DNA from: a bacterium
Lineage (GTDB): Bacteria > Actinomycetota > Acidimicrobiia > Spongiisociales > Spongiisociaceae
Reading direction: 5' to 3'
Length of the DNA: 64,000 bases
Assembly (NCBI GenBank): GCA_028820935.1
Contig: JAPPHZ010000035.1
Coordinates: 50,747-114,746 of the forward strand
A program made the translations under genes and the position numbers. Below the pieces are notes generated by a model. The model was not told the origin of the DNA, made no database searches, and saw only the letters and a program-made list of their open reading frames with translations. Below, piece after piece: positions 10,028-58,088 of the stretch (position 1 is the first letter of the stretch; each line of letters starts with the position of its first letter).

Positions 10028-10117
10028 GGCTAGTAGTAGCTAGGTGCCGGTTGCTAGTTGCTCGTGACTAGTTGTATATAATGACTAGCAACTATAGACT
10101 AGCCGACTAGAGACTAA
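10028..10117. repeat. low-GC CTAG-rich spacer (copy A), between pafB start and pafA stop
   Basis: Sequence ggctagtagtagctaggtgccggTTGCTAgttgctcgtgactagttgTATATAATgactagcaactatagactagccgactagagactaa. It carries 9 CTAG tetramers in about 90 bp, inside a genome where CTAG is otherwise almost absent. Confidence 0.8.
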
Positions 10118-11475: not shown

Positions 11476-11580
11476 CCCAATAGGCTAATGACTAGTTTCT
11501 AGTCGCTAGTCAGTATTTACTAGTCAGTAGTTTCTAGGTACTAGCCGTTATCTTATAAGCTTAAACATAACTAGCAACTA
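11476..11580. repeat. low-GC CTAG-rich spacer (copy B), between pafA start and prcA stop
   Basis: Sequence ...aatgactagtttctagtcgctagtcagtatttactagtcagtagtttctaggtactagccgttatcttataagcttaaacataactagcaactagg. On the pafA-sense strand it has TTGCTA, a 16-nt spacer, then TAAGAT, which is promoter-like. Confidence 0.8.
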
Positions 11581-12255
11581 GGAATTCGCTATCTCGCCGA
11601 GTTCTTCCTTGGTCAGGCGGCGGAACCGGCGCGCCGGGCCCTCCCGCGCCAGCAGGGCGCCCTCCCAACCGTCGATGTCGCGGCCCTCGACCTCCCGGAA
11701 CGCGTTGGCGGTGAGGGCCAGAGCCTCGTCCAGGCCGAGGGTGTCCTGGTAGTCCTCCCCCAGCCGGTCGGACAGCTCGTCGGCCTGCCCGCCGATGGCC
11801 GTGTAACCGCGCTTGTCGTACAGCGTGCCGTCGTACGTGACCTTGAACAGGCGGTCCTCGGCAACGGTCCGGCCGACCTCCGCCACCAGCACCTCCACCT
11901 CGAAGGGCTTGGGTCCCTGGACGAATATGTTTCCCAGCGTCTGCGAGAAGGCCGACGCGAGGCTCTTGGCGGTGACGTCGCGGCGCCCGTACTGGTATCC
12001 CTTGATGTCGGCATAGCGGATTCCCGCCACCCGCAATGACTCGAACTCGTTGTACTTGCCCACCCCGGCGAAGGCGATACGGTCGTATATCTCCGAGGTC
12101 TTGGTGAGGGTGCGGCTGGGGTTCTCGGCCAGCAACAGGACCCCCTCCCGAACCTCCAGAGCGGCGATAGACCGGCCTCGGGCAATGCCCTTGCGGGCGT
12201 ACTCGGCGCGGTCCTTGACCAGCTGTTCGGGAGCTACGTAGAACGGAAGGGTCAC
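11578..12255 (-). CDS. prcA: 20S proteasome alpha subunit
   Basis: 225 aa, MTLPFYVAPEQLVKDRAEYARKGIARGRS..., the bacterial PrcA N-terminus. Confidence 0.95.
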   Translation of the reverse strand: MTLPFYVAPEQLVKDRAEYARKGIARGRSIAALEVREGVLLLAENPSRTLTKTSEIYDRIAFAGVGKYNEFESLRVAGIRYADIKGYQYGRRDVTAKSLASAFSQTLGNIFVQGPKPFEVEVLVAEVGRTVAEDRLFKVTYDGTLYDKRGYTAIGGQADELSDRLGEDYQDTLGLDEALALTANAFREVEGRDIDGWEGALLAREGPARRFRRLTKEELGEIANS

Positions 12256-23043: not shown

Positions 23044-23283
23044 TCAGCGGCCGAGAAGGATCGCCAGGCTGACGGTCGTGGCCGCGAACAGGACCGCCAC
23101 GAAGACGGTCATGCGATCCAGGTTCCGCTCGGCGAGCGTCGATCCGCCCATCCCGCCTGCCTGCATCCCGCCGCCGAACATGTCGCCAAGCCCACCCTTG
23201 CCGGCATGAAGCAGGATCAGGAAGACCAGGGCAACCGCCACGATGAGATGAAGGACGGTGATGATGGCGATCGCAACAGTCAT
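23044..23283 (-). CDS. secG: preprotein translocase subunit SecG
   Basis: 79 aa, two TM helices, glycine-rich loop LHAGKGGLGDMFGGG. Confidence 0.85.
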   Translation of the reverse strand: MTVAIAIITVLHLIVAVALVFLILLHAGKGGLGDMFGGGMQAGGMGGSTLAERNLDRMTVFVAVLFAATTVSLAILLGR

Positions 23284-23320
23284 TACTTAGTTCCTAGTTG
23301 TTAGTTTCTAGTTTCGAGTT
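23284..23320. repeat. CTAG-rich spacer (copy C); also encodes the C-terminal tail of the four-helix-bundle gene
   Basis: cttagttcctagttgttagtttctagtttcgagtt; the 4HB ORF ends ...TTNSKLETNN* inside it. Confidence 0.75.
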
Positions 23321-23599
23321 GGTGGTGGGCGTCAAGCGAAGCGCCCGCTTGAGCCCGCTGAGCATCCTACCAACCTCGTCGGCACAAACCAGAACATCCT
23401 GAACGTGCTCGTTGTCGGCCATGCCCAGCCGGCTAGCCAAGATCAGAAACGTCTCTGTCTCTGCCAGCGAGCCGCTCGCGATTCCCAGAAACTGGAGGAA
23501 CTCCCTGGCGGAGAGCCGATAGACCATCTCGGCCAACTCGAGGGATTTCTGCCAGACCTCCAAATCCTGATAGCCGCCCGTGATGGTTACTATAGCCAT
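23294..23599 (-). CDS. four-helix-bundle protein (23S rRNA intervening-sequence protein family, TIGR02436-like)
   Basis: YQDLEVWQKSLELAEMVYRL...FLQFLGIASGSLAETETFLILASRLG is the hallmark. Its GC (about 55%) is clearly below that of its neighbours. Confidence 0.8.
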   Translation of the reverse strand: MAIVTITGGYQDLEVWQKSLELAEMVYRLSAREFLQFLGIASGSLAETETFLILASRLGMADNEHVQDVLVCADEVGRMLSGLKRALRLTPTTNSKLETNN

Positions 23600-23661
23600 C
23601 AGTATGTTCTAAGCTATATTGACTAGCAACTAGCAACTAGCAACTAGCAACTAGCAACTAG
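23600..23661. repeat. CTAG-rich spacer (copy D) with a perfect (CAACTAG)x5 tandem
   Basis: tgttctaagctatattgactag(caactag)x5 cc. The last TAG is the gpmA stop codon. TAG occurs every 7 nt on both strands, so all six frames are terminated. Confidence 0.85.
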
Positions 23662-24407
23662 CCGGCCTGTGCGGCAACTGCGGCAGCAGCGGCCTCCGCT
23701 ACTCCCGGATCGCCTAGGTACCGGTCTCCGGCATACTCCAGGTCGTCGTCCAGTTCCACGACCAGGGGGATCCCGGTGGGGATGTTCAGGCGGGTGATCT
23801 CCTCTTCGCCGATCCCTTTCAAGTACTTGAGCAGGGCGCGGATGCTGTTGCCGTGGGCCACGACCAGGACGCGGCGTCCCGCGGACAGGTCGGGCAGGAT
23901 CCCCGCCTCCCAGTAGGGAACCGCGCGGGCGACCACATCGGCCAGGCATTCGGAGACAGGGAGTTCCCCGGTGGCCACGTCCCGGTACCTCCTGTCGAAG
24001 CGGGGATGGCGCGGATCGTCCCTCTCCAGGGCCGGGGGCGGCACCCCATAGCTCCGCCTCCATTGGAAGACCTGATCCGCGCCATGCAGGGCGGCGGTCT
24101 CCTTCTTGTTCAGACCCTGCAAGCCGCCGTAGTGACGCTCGTTGAGCCGCCAACTCCGCCTGACGGGCAACCAGTGCAGGTCCATACGGTCGAGGGCGAT
24201 GTTGGCGGTGTTGATGGCCCGTCGCAGCAGCGAGGTGTGGACGATGTCGAAGGACAGGCCTTCCTCCGCCATCAGCACGCCGGCGGACACCGCTTCCTCC
24301 TCCCCGCCAACGGTGAGCGGTACGTCGGTCCAGCCCGAGAAGCGATTCTCGAGATTCCAGGTGCTCTCACCATGTCGAACCAGGACCAGCTCATTCGGTC
24401 GGCTCAT
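23658..24407 (-). CDS. gpmA: 2,3-bisphosphoglycerate-dependent phosphoglycerate mutase
   Basis: [25 protein letters not shown] (the RHGE phosphohistidine motif). Confidence 0.9.
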
Positions 24408-24425: not shown

Positions 24426-24534
24426 AAGAGGGTGCTGAAGAAGCCCTCACAAGGGGTTCGGGCGCTGTCTCATACCTCAGAACAGGTGACTTGCTGCCGG
24501 CGAACCCCGCGAGATTCATCTTCAGTACCCTCTC
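24426..24534. repeat. inverted-repeat-bounded intergenic element, copy 2
   Basis: AAGAGGGTGCTGAAGAAG...(about 75 nt containing an 8-bp GGGGTTCG/CGAACCCC stem)...CTTCAGTACCCTCT. The arm stem carries a compensatory A-T to G-C change relative to copy 1. The right arm overlaps the tpiA stop. Confidence 0.7.
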
Positions 24535-25309
24535 AAGTCCAGTACCTCACGCAGGCCGCCAGCGTCCCCGGGTCGAGAGATGCCCCCCCGATCAGGCCGC
24601 CGTCTATGTCCCGCTTGGCCATGAGCGCGGCCACGTTACCCGGGTTGATCGACCCGCCGTAGATGATCCGCACCTGATCGGCTGCATCCCCGTGCCGTGA
24701 TCGAATGCGGCTCCTTATGTGCGAGATCATCTCTTGGGCAACGGATGGCCGGGCGTGCCGGCCGGTGCCGATGGCCCATACCGGTTCGTACGCAACCACC
24801 AGCCGCGCTACCTGATCGGACGGTATCCTGGCGAGGGCGCCCGAGACCTGCCGGCCTACCGTCTCCTCGGCGCAACCGGCTTCACGTTCGTCCAGGGTCT
24901 CCCCTACCGCAACGATCGGCACGACTCCCTCCGACAGCGCCACCCGAGCCTTCCTGTTGACCATACGGTCGTCCTCGCCGAAGTCCCGGCGGCGCTCCGA
25001 ATGGCCCACTATGACGTAGCTGACGGCCAGCTTGGCCAGCATGCGGACCGATACCTCGCCGGTGTGGGCGCCTTCCTTTGCCCAATGCACGTTCTGCGCC
25101 ACGATGCGGATCGGTAGGTCGTCCATCTGGACCACCGTCTGGACCGAGCGGAGCGAGGTGAAGGAAGGCGCAACCCCGACGTCGACCCGGTCGTAGTCGG
25201 CCGGACCGAGCTGGTAGCTCAGAGCCTGTACCCACTGCATCGCCTCGAAGTAGGTCCCGTGCATCTTCCAGTTGGCCACCATCAGGGGCTTGCGCGCTAC
25301 CGGGCCCAT
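24533..25309 (-). CDS. tpiA: triose-phosphate isomerase
   Basis: ...PLMVANWKMHGT...VAYEPVWAIGTG... Start at the internal M (25309); the upstream extension overlaps pgk. Confidence 0.9.
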   Translation of the reverse strand: MGPVARKPLMVANWKMHGTYFEAMQWVQALSYQLGPADYDRVDVGVAPSFTSLRSVQTVVQMDDLPIRIVAQNVHWAKEGAHTGEVSVRMLAKLAVSYVIVGHSERRRDFGEDDRMVNRKARVALSEGVVPIVAVGETLDEREAGCAEETVGRQVSGALARIPSDQVARLVVAYEPVWAIGTGRHARPSVAQEMISHIRSRIRSRHGDAADQVRIIYGGSINPGNVAALMAKRDIDGGLIGGASLDPGTLAACVRYWT

Positions 25310-26481
25310 CGTTCCAGGCCCTTCACCCCCGGCAGGGTCTTGCCTTCCAGCAACTCGAGCCCGGCCCCGCCGCCTGTCGATAGGTGATCGAGGCCGGCCT
25401 GAAACCCGAGCATTCGCAGTGCGGCCACGGAATCGCCGCCGCCGGCTACCCGGAAGGCACTGGATCGGGCCATCGCGTCCGCCACCGTCGCAGTCCCCGA
25501 CCGGAACGCCTCCCACTCGAACACCCCCATGGGGCCGTTCCAGAAAACCGATCCCGACCCGCCGATGACCTCGGCGAACTGTTCGGCGGTGGCGGGGCCG
25601 ATGTCAAGACCCCAGGTGCCCTCCTCGATGGAACTCATACCCACCGCGGTGGCGCCGGCCTCCTCAGCGAACCGATCGGCGGTGACTATGTCCGAGGGAA
25701 GGACCAGCCTGTCTGCCTCCGGGGTGCTCAGGAGCTCGTTCAGGGAGTCGAAATAGTCCGGCTCGACCAGCGAGTTGCCGACCTCGTAGCCCTCGACGGC
25801 CAGGAAGCTGAAGCACATGCCGCCACCGACGAGCATGGCGTCCACCTTGGGTAGCAGCGCCCGGATCAGCGGAAGCTTGTCCGAGATCTTGGCGCCCCCC
25901 AGCACCACCGTGAACGGTTGGGGCGGGTTGTCCATGAGGGTGCTGAACACGGCAAGCTCGCGTTCTAGCAGCGGCCCTGCCGCCGATCTGAGCAGGGAGG
26001 ACACCCCGGTGGTGGAGGCATGGGCCCGGTGGGCCGAACCGAACGCGTCCAGCACGAAGACGTCGGCCCACTCGGCCAACTCCGACGCGTAATCGGGGTC
26101 ATTGGTGGTCTCGCCGGGATGGAAACGGGTATTCTCGAGCAGCACCACGTCGCCCGGACGGGCCTCTCCGATCAGGCGGCGGGCGTCCTCGCCGACCGAG
26201 TCGGAGGCGTGGACAACCGGGAATCCACCCAGCTCGGACAGTGCCACGGCCACGGGGGCCATCCGCATCCCGTCCACCACGCGGCCCCGGGGCCGTCCCA
26301 GATGGCTGCATAGGATGACCACCGCGCCGGCGTCTCTTAGCCGGCCTATGGCGGGGAGCGCCGCCCGGAGACGAAAGTCATCAGCCACCCGCCCGTCTCG
26401 CAGGGGAACGTTCAGGTCGGACCGGAGCAGCACACGGCGCTCGGACACCGGAAGATCCGCGACGGTCAAGAAACTCTCCAC
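25297..26481 (-). CDS. pgk: phosphoglycerate kinase
   Basis: 394 aa. ...RSDLNVPL... N-terminus and the ...GGGDS... C-terminal motif. Confidence 0.9.
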   Translation of the reverse strand: MESFLTVADLPVSERRVLLRSDLNVPLRDGRVADDFRLRAALPAIGRLRDAGAVVILCSHLGRPRGRVVDGMRMAPVAVALSELGGFPVVHASDSVGEDARRLIGEARPGDVVLLENTRFHPGETTNDPDYASELAEWADVFVLDAFGSAHRAHASTTGVSSLLRSAAGPLLERELAVFSTLMDNPPQPFTVVLGGAKISDKLPLIRALLPKVDAMLVGGGMCFSFLAVEGYEVGNSLVEPDYFDSLNELLSTPEADRLVLPSDIVTADRFAEEAGATAVGMSSIEEGTWGLDIGPATAEQFAEVIGGSGSVFWNGPMGVFEWEAFRSGTATVADAMARSSAFRVAGGGDSVAALRMLGFQAGLDHLSTGGGAGLELLEGKTLPGVKGLERWAR

Positions 26482-56627: not shown

Positions 56628-58049
56628 ATGAGCCAGGCTTCTCCATCTGATCGCACCGTATGCGACCTCCTGCTCGAGGGTGGGGTGGTGATCACGCTGG
56701 ACGGGGTGCGGCGGGTGCTTGATCACGGCGCCGTGGCCGTCGCCGGTGGGAAGATCACGGAGGTCGGCTCCGCCGCCGACCTGCGGCACTTGCGGGAGAC
56801 GGCCGGGAAGGTCATCGACTGCCGCGGCAAGGTGGTCCTCCCCGGGCTGACTGACGGCCACACCCACCTGTTCCAGTCGCTGGGCCGGGGACTCGGCGAC
56901 GGCATGACGCTGGTGCCCTGGCTGCAGAGGTTCATGCTGCCTTACTCGAAGGCGATCACAAGGGAGATGAGCGTGGCGGCGGTCCGGCTCGGCGCGCTCC
57001 AGGCCGCCCTATCCGGCACCACGATGGTGGTGGACAACCACTATGCACCCACCGACACCGAGACCATCCTGGCAGTCGCTGACGCGGTGGAGGAGGTGGG
57101 AATCAGAGGTGCCATCGCCCGGGGGATCTTCGGGGAAATGAACCCGGGCGGAGAGCTGATGGGGGTGGATCCGGACCTGTTCACCTGGACCAACCAGGAG
57201 GAGATCGCGATCACCGCCGAATGCATGGCCGAGCGTCCGCGCGGCGGCCGGGTCGAGGTCTGGCCGTGCCCGGAGAACATCGTGTACGTTTGGCCGGAGC
57301 TGATCGAGGCCTCCGCGGAGATGGCTGCGGCCGCCGGGGTCGGCTGGCACATGCACTGCTCCGAGGTGCAGGACGAGATCTCGTTCTTCATGGAGGTGCA
57401 CGGAACCCGCCCCGTGGCGTGGCTGGCCGACCGGGGGCTGCTGAGCCGCCACACCACGCTCGCTCATGCCGTATGGCTGGATCCTGACGAGGTGGCGGCC
57501 ATGGGCGCCTCCAGCGCCGCCGCCGTGCACAACCCGATCTCCAACCAGTACCTGGCCTCGGGCGTGCTCCACCTGGAGCCGCTGCTGTCGGCGGGCGCAA
57601 CCGTCGCCCTGGGTAGCGACGGGGTAGCGGTCGCCGGGCAGGACATCTTCGAGGCCATGAAGGCAGGCATGCTGATGCACCGGGTGGCCAGCCTCGACTC
57701 CACCGCCACCACGGTGGAGCAGTTCCTCGAACTGGGTACGCTCGGCGGAGCGGCCATGACCGGTCTGCACGCCGGATCGCTGGAACCGGGCCGGGCGGCC
57801 GACCTGGTGGTGGTGGACGTGTCCGGCGTCCGGCACACGCCATGGAGCCGTCCGGTGGCGTCGGTGGTCCACTCCGGCAGCGCGGCCGAGGTCGACACGG
57901 TGATCGTGGCCGGTGAGATCATCGTGGAGGATGGGCGCTCCACCAGGGTGGACGAGGCCGAGGTGAGGGCGATGGCGGCCGAGGCAGCTGCGCAGCTTTT
58001 CGGCAAGGCGCGGCTGAGCGAACTCGCCAGCGACTGGATTGGTTTCTAG
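56628..58049 (+). CDS. amidohydrolase family protein (MTA/SAH-deaminase/chlorohydrolase-like)
   Basis: Metal-binding ...LPGLTDGHTHLFQS... (HxH) and a downstream His/Asp in the TIM barrel. 473 aa. Confidence 0.85.
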   Translation: MSQASPSDRTVCDLLLEGGVVITLDGVRRVLDHGAVAVAGGKITEVGSAADLRHLRETAGKVIDCRGKVVLPGLTDGHTHLFQSLGRGLGDGMTLVPWLQRFMLPYSKAITREMSVAAVRLGALQAALSGTTMVVDNHYAPTDTETILAVADAVEEVGIRGAIARGIFGEMNPGGELMGVDPDLFTWTNQEEIAITAECMAERPRGGRVEVWPCPENIVYVWPELIEASAEMAAAAGVGWHMHCSEVQDEISFFMEVHGTRPVAWLADRGLLSRHTTLAHAVWLDPDEVAAMGASSAAAVHNPISNQYLASGVLHLEPLLSAGATVALGSDGVAVAGQDIFEAMKAGMLMHRVASLDSTATTVEQFLELGTLGGAAMTGLHAGSLEPGRAADLVVVDVSGVRHTPWSRPVASVVHSGSAAEVDTVIVAGEIIVEDGRSTRVDEAEVRAMAAEAAAQLFGKARLSELASDWIGF

Positions 58050-58088
58050 TCGATAGTTGCAACTAACAACTACCAACTACCAACTAGA
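58045..58088. repeat. CTAG-rich spacer (copy F) with a CAACTAN 7-mer tandem, between convergent amidohydrolase and ccdA
   Basis: tctagtcgatagttgcaactaacaactaccaactaccaactag. It spans both stop codons. Confidence 0.8.

Follow-up and report, generated by a model that had tools for sequence, protein, structure and literature searches.

The four-helix-bundle (4HB) protein family, also known as the 23S rRNA intervening sequence (IVS) or S23p family, is very large and includes solved structures, and we know of no function for it outside diversity-generating retroelements. In Coxiella burnetii, the 23S rRNA IVS carries an S23p open reading frame (ORF) of this family within a 28-bp terminal-inverted-repeat stem; two or three tandem GACAGAT heptamers (CAGATGA in another rotation) precede the S23p sequence, the first of them being the site of RNase III cleavage, and the reading frame shows decay that includes a 176-bp deletion in one strain (PMC4990558). 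In Geobacter metallireducens, runs of four to five tandem heptanucleotides form pairs, one member per strand with about 100 bp separating them, between genes of housekeeping operons such as proB-proA and moaA-mosC; their unit, MTYCTGA (reverse complement TCAGRAK), was interpreted as a binding site for IHF/HU-type regulators, and the 4HB family was unmentioned (Aklujkar et al. 2009, PMC2700814). Here, we analyzed a stretch of 64,000 nucleotides (nt), hereafter the window, from a member of the Spongiisociaceae (Acidimicrobiia; GenBank assembly GCA_028820935.1, contig JAPPHZ010000035.1, positions 50,747 to 114,746), in which a 4HB ORF of 101 amino acids (aa) is framed by inverted heptamer arrays between gpmA and secG. 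We consider this element to be, more likely than not, a degraded IVS-type cassette, old and vertically carried, in an mRNA operon.

The cassette consists of a 4HB (S23p/Avd-like) ORF enclosed by a (YAGNNNN)n array upstream and the reverse complement of that array downstream, the unit here being CTAGTTG. Tandem Repeats Finder reported the upstream arm at 23622-23662 (period 7, 5.9 copies, 100% match) and the more degenerate downstream arm at 23288-23320 (period 7, 4.7 copies, 80% match), and positions 23288-23326 form an inverted repeat of 39 nt with positions 23622-23660 at 82% complementarity. The predicted arm duplex comprises 32 bp at -34.0 kcal/mol, compared with -14.5 ± 4.7 when the downstream arm was shuffled, and the minimum free energy RNA fold of the whole cassette pairs the arms as its closing stem (z = -4.6 for the window and -4.9 for the related locus L003). 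As in an rRNA IVS, the element is surrounded by a long predicted stem of terminal inverted repeats. Both arrays abut the host genes: the first TAG of the upstream arm (23658-23660) is the gpmA stop codon, while the downstream arm, whose last unit precedes secG, ends 9 nt ahead of the secG ATG and supplies CTAGGAAC just 5′ of that start codon. Furthermore, the last 10 or so codons of the ORF, together with its stop codon, lie in the downstream array. An earlier note on this DNA had placed the cassette between gpmA and secG with repeats on both sides, had read the end of the ORF as repeat-encoded and had treated ORF and repeats as one unit; all of these points are confirmed.

The likeness to the 23S rRNA IVSs of C. 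burnetii and Leptospira lies in the homologous 4HB ORF and in a stem of about 28-30 bp enclosing it. As in the Coxiella IVS, tandem heptamers of variable copy number stand just 5′ of the ORF, CAGATGA fitting the YAG+4 pattern, and the ORF decays through deletions while the RNA arms persist. Unlike the 23S IVSs, the window cassette occupies the spacer between two genes of an mRNA operon rather than 23S rRNA helix 25 or 45, so it is no rRNA insertion; an Rfam search over the window returned three tRNAs only, with no rRNA at the cassette and no Rfam family spanning it. In addition, whereas the Coxiella heptamers stand ahead of the ORF, those of the window form both arms, contain CTAG and provide the stop codon of the upstream gene, and RNase III excision was demonstrated for Coxiella and other rRNA IVSs, whereas for the window cassette it would be a prediction. 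Avd, the accessory protein of diversity-generating retroelements, shares the fold family of the window ORF (co-matches to PF05635 and PF22296; statement in PMC10053308). Unlike the context of Avd, the surroundings of the cassette contain neither a reverse transcriptase nor a template/variable repeat pair, the Pfam calls in its 20-kb neighbourhood being housekeeping genes only; the same calls included no transposase or recombinase. No direct repeat was found beside the arrays (GCCGGC-TAG... and ...AAGTA-ATGACT); the cassette has neither the target-site duplication and cognate transposase of a transposon or miniature inverted-repeat transposable element nor the adjacent reverse transcriptase and repeats of a diversity-generating retroelement. 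Relative to the known rRNA IVSs, both an IVS-type element in an mRNA operon and the generalised heptamer-arm rule described below appear to be new. Our search of the open-access literature found no paper tying non-rRNA 4HB genes to flanking heptamer arrays, which is no proof of novelty.

The 101-aa ORF belongs to the 4HB/23S-IVS family, as had been claimed: it matched PF05635 at 58.8 bits (cut-off 33.8) and TIGR02436 at 52.9 bits (cut-off 24), and a profile of its orthologues matched PDB entry 2GSC with E = 2.9e-33. Its GC content of 57% is lower than that of the neighbouring genes (65-68%), a difference that the earlier values of 55% against 68-70% slightly overstated, and the GC content at third codon positions (75%, against 82-84% in the neighbours) agrees. 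The exact protein was found only in the assemblies of one sponge metagenome and in a metagenome-assembled genome derived therefrom. Its nearest homologues measure 116-123 aa and are about 91% identical in aligned columns, outside a 34-aa gap in the window protein; because of this internal deletion, the window protein matches the family model in two stretches. The missing residues, R26-A59 of the orthologues, correspond to helix 2 and both adjoining loops in an AlphaFold2 model of orthologue P0003 (predicted local distance difference test score 93; helices 4-24, 29-54, 59-85 and 91-122). Helix 2 holds the most conserved motif of the family, Q-x-RRA-x-x-S-I-x-x-N-I-A-E-G, which is gone from the window protein; with an incomplete set of four helices, the latter is a deletion derivative of a PF05635/TIGR02436 member. 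In intact relatives, the 102-bp segment that the window copy lost is bordered by the 7-nt direct repeat CGCCAGG, and in our best explanation the in-frame deletion would be microhomology-mediated. Moreover, the ancestral start position (23579-23581) reads ATG in L003 and L004, GTG in L005 and ACG in the window, the start region being CATCATGGGC, CATCGTGGGC and CATCACGGGC, respectively, and the window frame is open solely from an in-frame ATG seven codons 5′ of that position. The 101-aa protein is most probably inactive, and the arrays of the window cassette are intact despite the damage to the ORF.

To place the cassette in its operon, we combined an orthologue look-up with a TpiA scan, using one genome per GTDB species, which returned 80 Acidimicrobiia loci. 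The order pgk-tpiA-gpmA-secG is the usual one across the class, so gpmA is no insertion and the 4HB gene is the sole inserted gene; the earlier description of an interrupted operon was right about the latter and wrong in regarding gpmA between tpiA and secG as unusual. The 4HB gene is confined to the closest clade (TpiA at least 84% identical; Ca. Spongiisocius/Spongiisociaceae records), where it always lies in the gpmA-secG spacer, is present at this site in at least 10 related genomes and has diverged to a similar degree as its neighbouring genes; its nearest homologues outside the Spongiisocius clade come from other phyla. No 4HB gene was present in deeper Spongiisociaceae and other Acidimicrobiia (L012-L085), and no heptamer arrays were present in the gpmA-secG spacers of the six deeper relatives read directly (L012-L015, L017 and L018), the spacer being just 91-120 nt long in L012, L015 and L018. 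GpmA ends in ...AVAAQAG in nearly all genomes examined, with one extra residue in L017, and its stop codon is the TAG of the array in every cassette-bearing relative and TAA or TGA in the cassette-less ones. Junction comparison, which the earlier note had put forward as a check, yielded a gene at the same site throughout the clade, in decay, and deeper relatives devoid of gene and arrays. The notion of a selfish cassette holds in that the element is an insertion relative to deeper relatives, and fails in that the element, located at the same site in at least 10 genomes, is no recent or active insertion there. As a side observation, several other Acidimicrobiia have insertions unrelated to the cassette at the tpiA-gpmA and gpmA-secG junctions (1.2-1.4 kb separate gpmA from secG in L013 and L017, and about 2-3 kb separate tpiA from gpmA in L026, L034, L036, L062, L070 and others), indicating that the operon tolerates interruption at these points.

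Within the clade, the alleles form a decay series. L003, L004 and L005 carry an intact 4HB gene of 123 aa; L011 has lost the start codon and shows substitutions at invariant residues; the window copy has lost helix 2 through the 102-bp deletion; in L008 and L016, all that is left is the 3′ third, which abuts the gpmA stop codon; and L006, L007 and L010 retain barely recognisable remnants. In total, at least six related lineages have a reduced gene or none. The dN/dS values of 0.18-0.24 among intact copies indicate that the protein was once under purifying selection, and the comparison of alleles fits one ancestral insertion, purifying selection for some time and then repeated loss. Each allele forms an arm duplex of 29-33 bp at -30 to -55 kcal/mol, the values for shuffled sequences being -13 to -25. 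A concerted change of the two arms to TCAGTGG/CCACTGA has taken place in L006, L007, L009 and L010, and duplexes built across allele classes are weak, reaching about -22 kcal/mol. In these four alleles, near-perfect arms (CTGACCA x5-7) surround an ORF remnant of about 100 nt, and the downstream array begins at the ORF's own ...GGTAAG-CTGACC.

The pairing of 4HB genes with mirrored heptamers is not confined to this clade. Distant homologues in Chloroflexota (L088), Acidobacteriota (L086) and a 5.4-Mb genome (L090) have inverted heptamers of other units on both sides, and a metagenome scan with the family profile added 80 further loci, giving 61 non-redundant 4HB loci in total. Lag 7 was the top periodicity in 55 of the 61 upstream and 54 of the 61 downstream flanks, compared with 30 of 326 random windows; at least 20 of 28 self-matches at lag 7 were found in 26 upstream and 31 downstream flanks, a score reached by 4 of 307 windows 3′ of other stop codons in the same loci. 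We then restricted the comparison of units to the 41 loci having clear arrays on both sides. The upstream unit was the reverse complement of the downstream unit with at most one mismatch at 26 of these loci and with at most two at 37, whereas units from mismatched locus pairs agreed in 10% and 31% of cases, respectively. Aligned units conformed to Y-A-G-k-G-r-n, in which A reaches 90% and G 98%, and had an information content of 5.6 bits, compared with 2.7 ± 0.2 for random units, and arrays mostly counted 3-5 units (mode 4-5). Matched and mismatched duplex energies were also compared across the 61 loci, the matched pair ranking first in 26%; the frequency of the CAGTGGN unit class among the loci limits the power of this test, and the unit comparison is the better one. 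The unit is locus-specific yet mirrored, and most units contain no stop codon (Chloroflexota, Acidobacteriota, Cyanobacteriota and metagenome lineages). The window units, TAGTTGC upstream and GCAACTA-type downstream, fit the pattern defined from these loci. The link between repeat and protein-coding passenger proposed in the earlier note is real and extends far more widely than proposed.

Housekeeping operons recur as the context of the cassette, as in guaB-4HB-guaA, and plasmids of the cultured Nostoc punctiforme, Calothrix brevissima and Anabaena sp. 90 also carry 4HB genes with inverted heptamers. Individual contexts include the guaB-guaA arrangement with the unit TAGTCGT/ACGACTA (L109, L113, L114, L125, L147 and L156), a cassette with the unit GCGAATA/TATTCGC between ...DYVLPGDEKAK and M.E..LRNFT (L134, L135, L138, L144, L152 and L163), and, on the Anabaena sp. 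90 plasmid pANA02 (L177; NC_019429.1 43880-45018), a 4HB gene that has CAGGTGA/TCACCTG arms and is located in a CRISPR-Cas locus, with cas6 and cas4 as its neighbours. In one large sub-group of 25 loci, a DNA methylase ORF (PF01555) exceeding 1000 aa contains the whole cassette as an insert of exactly 498 nt between ...NLFVIFGEPDI and VHGVDVFHP..., the 4HB gene using the +1 frame relative to the methylase. None of the 25 has a stop codon in the host frame anywhere in the insert, whereas the third frame averages 9.8 (median ORF identity 69%), and the host frame appears to be kept open by selection. The methylases of L119 and L121 have extra short in-frame insertions, translating as ...SDQWLVAS...TTNHQPLTT..., that are missing from others such as L093. 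Each comprises a heptamer array, a loop and the complementary array, and they vary among methylase orthologues, which implies that ORF-less heptamer hairpins can insert in frame within coding sequence; we take them to be reminiscent of the Rickettsia palindromic elements.

ORF-less arrays also occur in the window itself. CTAG is strongly avoided there, with 66 occurrences where base composition predicts about 194, and seven intergenic clusters account for 39 of the 66. In five spacers other than that of the cassette, beside ordinary genes, a CTAGTTG-type array precedes a CAACTAG-type array, and the sequence separating the two contains no ORF (Table 1). These pairs belong to the same repeat family as the cassette arms, and their derivation from 4HB cassettes is plausible; they are heterogeneous and not copies of one sequence. 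The CTAG pairs flanking pafA were absent from the same spacers, short and GC-rich, of L171, L172 and L173, and are therefore lineage-specific gains; PafA is 84-95% identical over these relatives and 94-95% identical in the close ones, the genome of L004 included. L171 derives from the same genome as L004, which holds an intact 4HB cassette and yet has no arrays flanking pafA.

Table 1 Coordinates of the features in the window and of the methylase loci.
Feature	Position	Strand	Remarks
4HB (23S rRNA IVS protein family) ORF	23294-23599	minus	101 aa, internally deleted derivative; PF05635, TIGR02436
Junction of the 102-bp in-frame deletion	23504-23510	minus	at CGCCAGG; comparison with L003, L004, L005
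AT-rich leader between upstream array and ORF	23579-23619	minus	holds imperfect hairpin 23581-23601 and the ancestral start position
Upstream arm, (CTAGTTG)x6	23620-23662	minus	perfect; Tandem Repeats Finder
Downstream arm, (CAACTAG)n	23284-23326	minus	degenerate; reverse complement of upstream arm
pgk	25297-26481	minus	top of operon order pgk-tpiA-gpmA-4HB ORF-secG
tpiA	24533-25309	minus	between pgk and gpmA
gpmA	23658-24407	minus	host gene upstream of cassette; NF010713, 355.6 bits
secG	23044-23283	minus	host gene downstream of cassette; TIGR00810, 65.3 bits
CTAGTTG-type array, AT-rich loop, CAACTAG-type array	10030-10116		downstream of pafA; fold z = -0.9
CTAG-heptamer pair	11492-11581		upstream of pafA; fold z = -1.5
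(CTAGTTG/CTAGTTC)x4, then weak complementary arm	48144-48215		fold z = -0.8
(CAACTAN)n heptamer hairpin	58046-58087		one end of membrane-protein gene; fold z = -4.1
(CTAGTTG)n of about 9 units, then (NNACTAG)n	58836-58938		fold z = -3.1
Methylase sub-group, example	L093:1-3228		4HB at 2492-2860
Methylase sub-group, loci			L086, L090, L091, L093-L099, L101, L102, L104, L108, L110, L112
Methylase sub-group, remaining loci			L115, L117, L119-L121, L124, L127, L133, L148

According to the explanation that we favour, the cassette would have entered the gpmA-secG spacer a single time, in the common ancestor of those sponge-associated Acidimicrobiia that form the genus-level clade Ca. Spongiisocius, and would thereafter have been inherited with the operon as a dispensable element, now being lost via deletion in several lineages. 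In the operon transcript, we infer that the two arrays pair and so enclose the ORF in a stem of about 30 bp; if the Coxiella 23S IVS is a guide, this stem would serve as an RNase III substrate, and the cut would separate the gpmA and secG messages and free the 4HB message. Several results pull in the other direction. We examined mismatches within the arm stems of 36 loci and found 37 G·U and 32 A·C mismatches (p = 0.63); this lack of a G·U excess suggests that complementarity may be kept at the DNA level and not by selection on the sense RNA. The methylase frame that stays open through the cassette argues against obligatory RNA excision at those loci. The allele classes at gpmA-secG conflict with the tree of the flanking genes, so that the history is not purely vertical: L005 and L008 share 99% identity over pgk-gpmA and yet have the intact and the 3′-third-only allele, respectively, and the remnant of L008 has the same breakpoint as that of L016, the identity between the flanking genes of these two loci being 88%. 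This incongruence points to allele exchange by recombination or a long-maintained polymorphism. Among the five ORF-less pairs of the window, three fold no better than shuffled sequence and two do, and the claim that similarity of their loops to the cassette leader marks them as ORF-deleted cassettes was dropped, as local alignment scores did not exceed those of shuffles.

Owing to the absent G·U excess and the open methylase frame, symmetry at the DNA level and arrays bound by protein stay alive as alternatives. The arrays may serve a foldback- or REPIN-like mobile element as its terminal inverted repeats, the element being moved or copied by an enzyme encoded elsewhere, with the 4HB gene as cargo and the ORF-less pairs as its non-autonomous form, an account that we regard as possible and somewhat doubtful. 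It would accommodate the CTAG pairs that flank pafA here and are absent in relatives with PafA 94-95% identical, the sharing of one unit family by the arrays within a genome, the unbiased stem mismatches, the in-frame heptamer hairpins that vary among methylase orthologues, and the 8-24 inverted pairs per tandem-repeat class between operon genes of G. metallireducens (PMC2700814). However, the 20 kb around the cassette contain no transposase or recombinase, no target-site duplication was seen at the cassette or at the pafA insertions, the ORF-less pairs of the window are heterogeneous, and across the clade the 4HB cassette has remained at a single site. The other alternative takes the arrays as binding sites of a ring-shaped 4HB oligomer that reads 4-5 YAG-N4 repeats in RNA or single-stranded DNA; binding would compete with pairing of the arms and could autoregulate or protect the cassette, which makes it compatible with the IVS-type reading. 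Precedents for heptamer-like recognition exist: the HutP site is (UAGNNNN)3, with a heptamer period, and TRAP reads spaced (G/U)AG triplets. The likeness, NAG triplets at fixed spacing and a ring-shaped oligomer, is an analogy only; the folds are unrelated. Retention of the YAG core while the other four positions vary between loci, the peak of array size at 4-5 units, the five chains with which the solved homologues 2GSC and 2RLD were each deposited, the homopentameric toroid cited for a Xanthomonas protein (PMC4990558) and the role of the homologue Avd as an accessory protein of diversity-generating retroelements would all suit such binding. Against this, arrays persist, stay homogeneous and even switch unit where the ORF is dead (L006, L007, L009, L010 and the window), and the sense RNA shows YAG on the upstream arm only, so that we hold this alternative, too, to be rather unlikely.

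Two simpler accounts fare worse. That the ORF is an ordinary, functional and vertically inherited operon gene with an active 101-aa product could draw on its same position in relatives with similar divergence, a dN/dS of about 0.2 and the frame open from the upstream in-frame ATG; the deletion of helix 2 with the most conserved family motif, the loss of the ancestral start codon, the reduction or loss in at least six related lineages with absence from deeper relatives, and nearest homologues outside the clade in other phyla make it very unlikely. Least credible of all, and close to being dismissed, is the view that CTAG heptamers are a generic spacer style of this genome, acting as a six-frame stop or insulator, and that the 4HB gene merely landed between two of them. 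A period-7 CTAG repeat does put TAG into all six reading frames, and CTAG arrays do occupy five other spacers near ordinary genes in the window; yet 4HB homologues in other phyla are bracketed by inverted heptamer arrays of other units, mostly without a stop codon, which largely refutes this view, and cassette-less relatives have no arrays in the gpmA-secG spacer.

The cross-phylum rule joins the Coxiella rRNA IVS, the many standalone copies in operons, the unexplained heptanucleotide families of Geobacter and, probably, those of cyanobacteria. The Geobacter pairs resemble the ORF-less CTAG pairs of the window and were described without an enclosed ORF. As for cyanobacteria, Mazel and colleagues reportedly described in 1990 the short tandemly repeated repetitive (STRR) heptanucleotides, dispersed tandem repeats in the intergenic DNA of Nostoc, Anabaena and Calothrix, the same genera whose plasmids carry 4HB genes with heptamer arrays; we found no description of STRRs as inverted pairs enclosing a 4HB gene. 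It is conceivable, and we offer it only as a tentative suggestion, that PF05635 4HB genes with inverted (YAGNNNN)3-5 arrays constitute a widespread and hitherto unrecognised class of bacterial intervening cassettes, residing in rRNA helices, in operons and in frame within ORFs, whose ring-shaped protein would read its own arrays and whose ORF-less pairs (the CTAG hairpins here, the Geobacter sites and possibly the cyanobacterial STRRs) would be non-autonomous derivatives. The rule serves as an annotation aid, as inverted heptamer pairs mark present or former cassettes, and it renders the function of the 4HB family testable through cleavage of the array stem by RNase III and binding of the protein to its own array. 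Taken by itself, the window locus allows a modest conclusion: the copy is in decay and probably inert, and the stop codon of gpmA now comes from its arms.

Three further observations concern the cassette leader and isolated arrays. A promoter that the earlier note had read in this region, TTGCTA-17-CATACT, did not hold up: it agrees with the consensus at 8 of 12 positions, fails a promoter scan and has a -10-like hexamer that is poorly conserved in L004 and L005. The leader hairpin, GATGGCTA-TAG-TAGCCATC, was considered as a conserved element and discarded, being perfect in L003 only. Finally, isolated long heptamer arrays without a nearby 4HB gene occur in a few other Acidimicrobiia loci (GGTATCC x10 at L059:8581-8655, GTCGCGG x19 at L080:5984-6120, CCAAGTA x4 at L073:8121-8157 and GCTAGTA x4 at L029:6272-6304).

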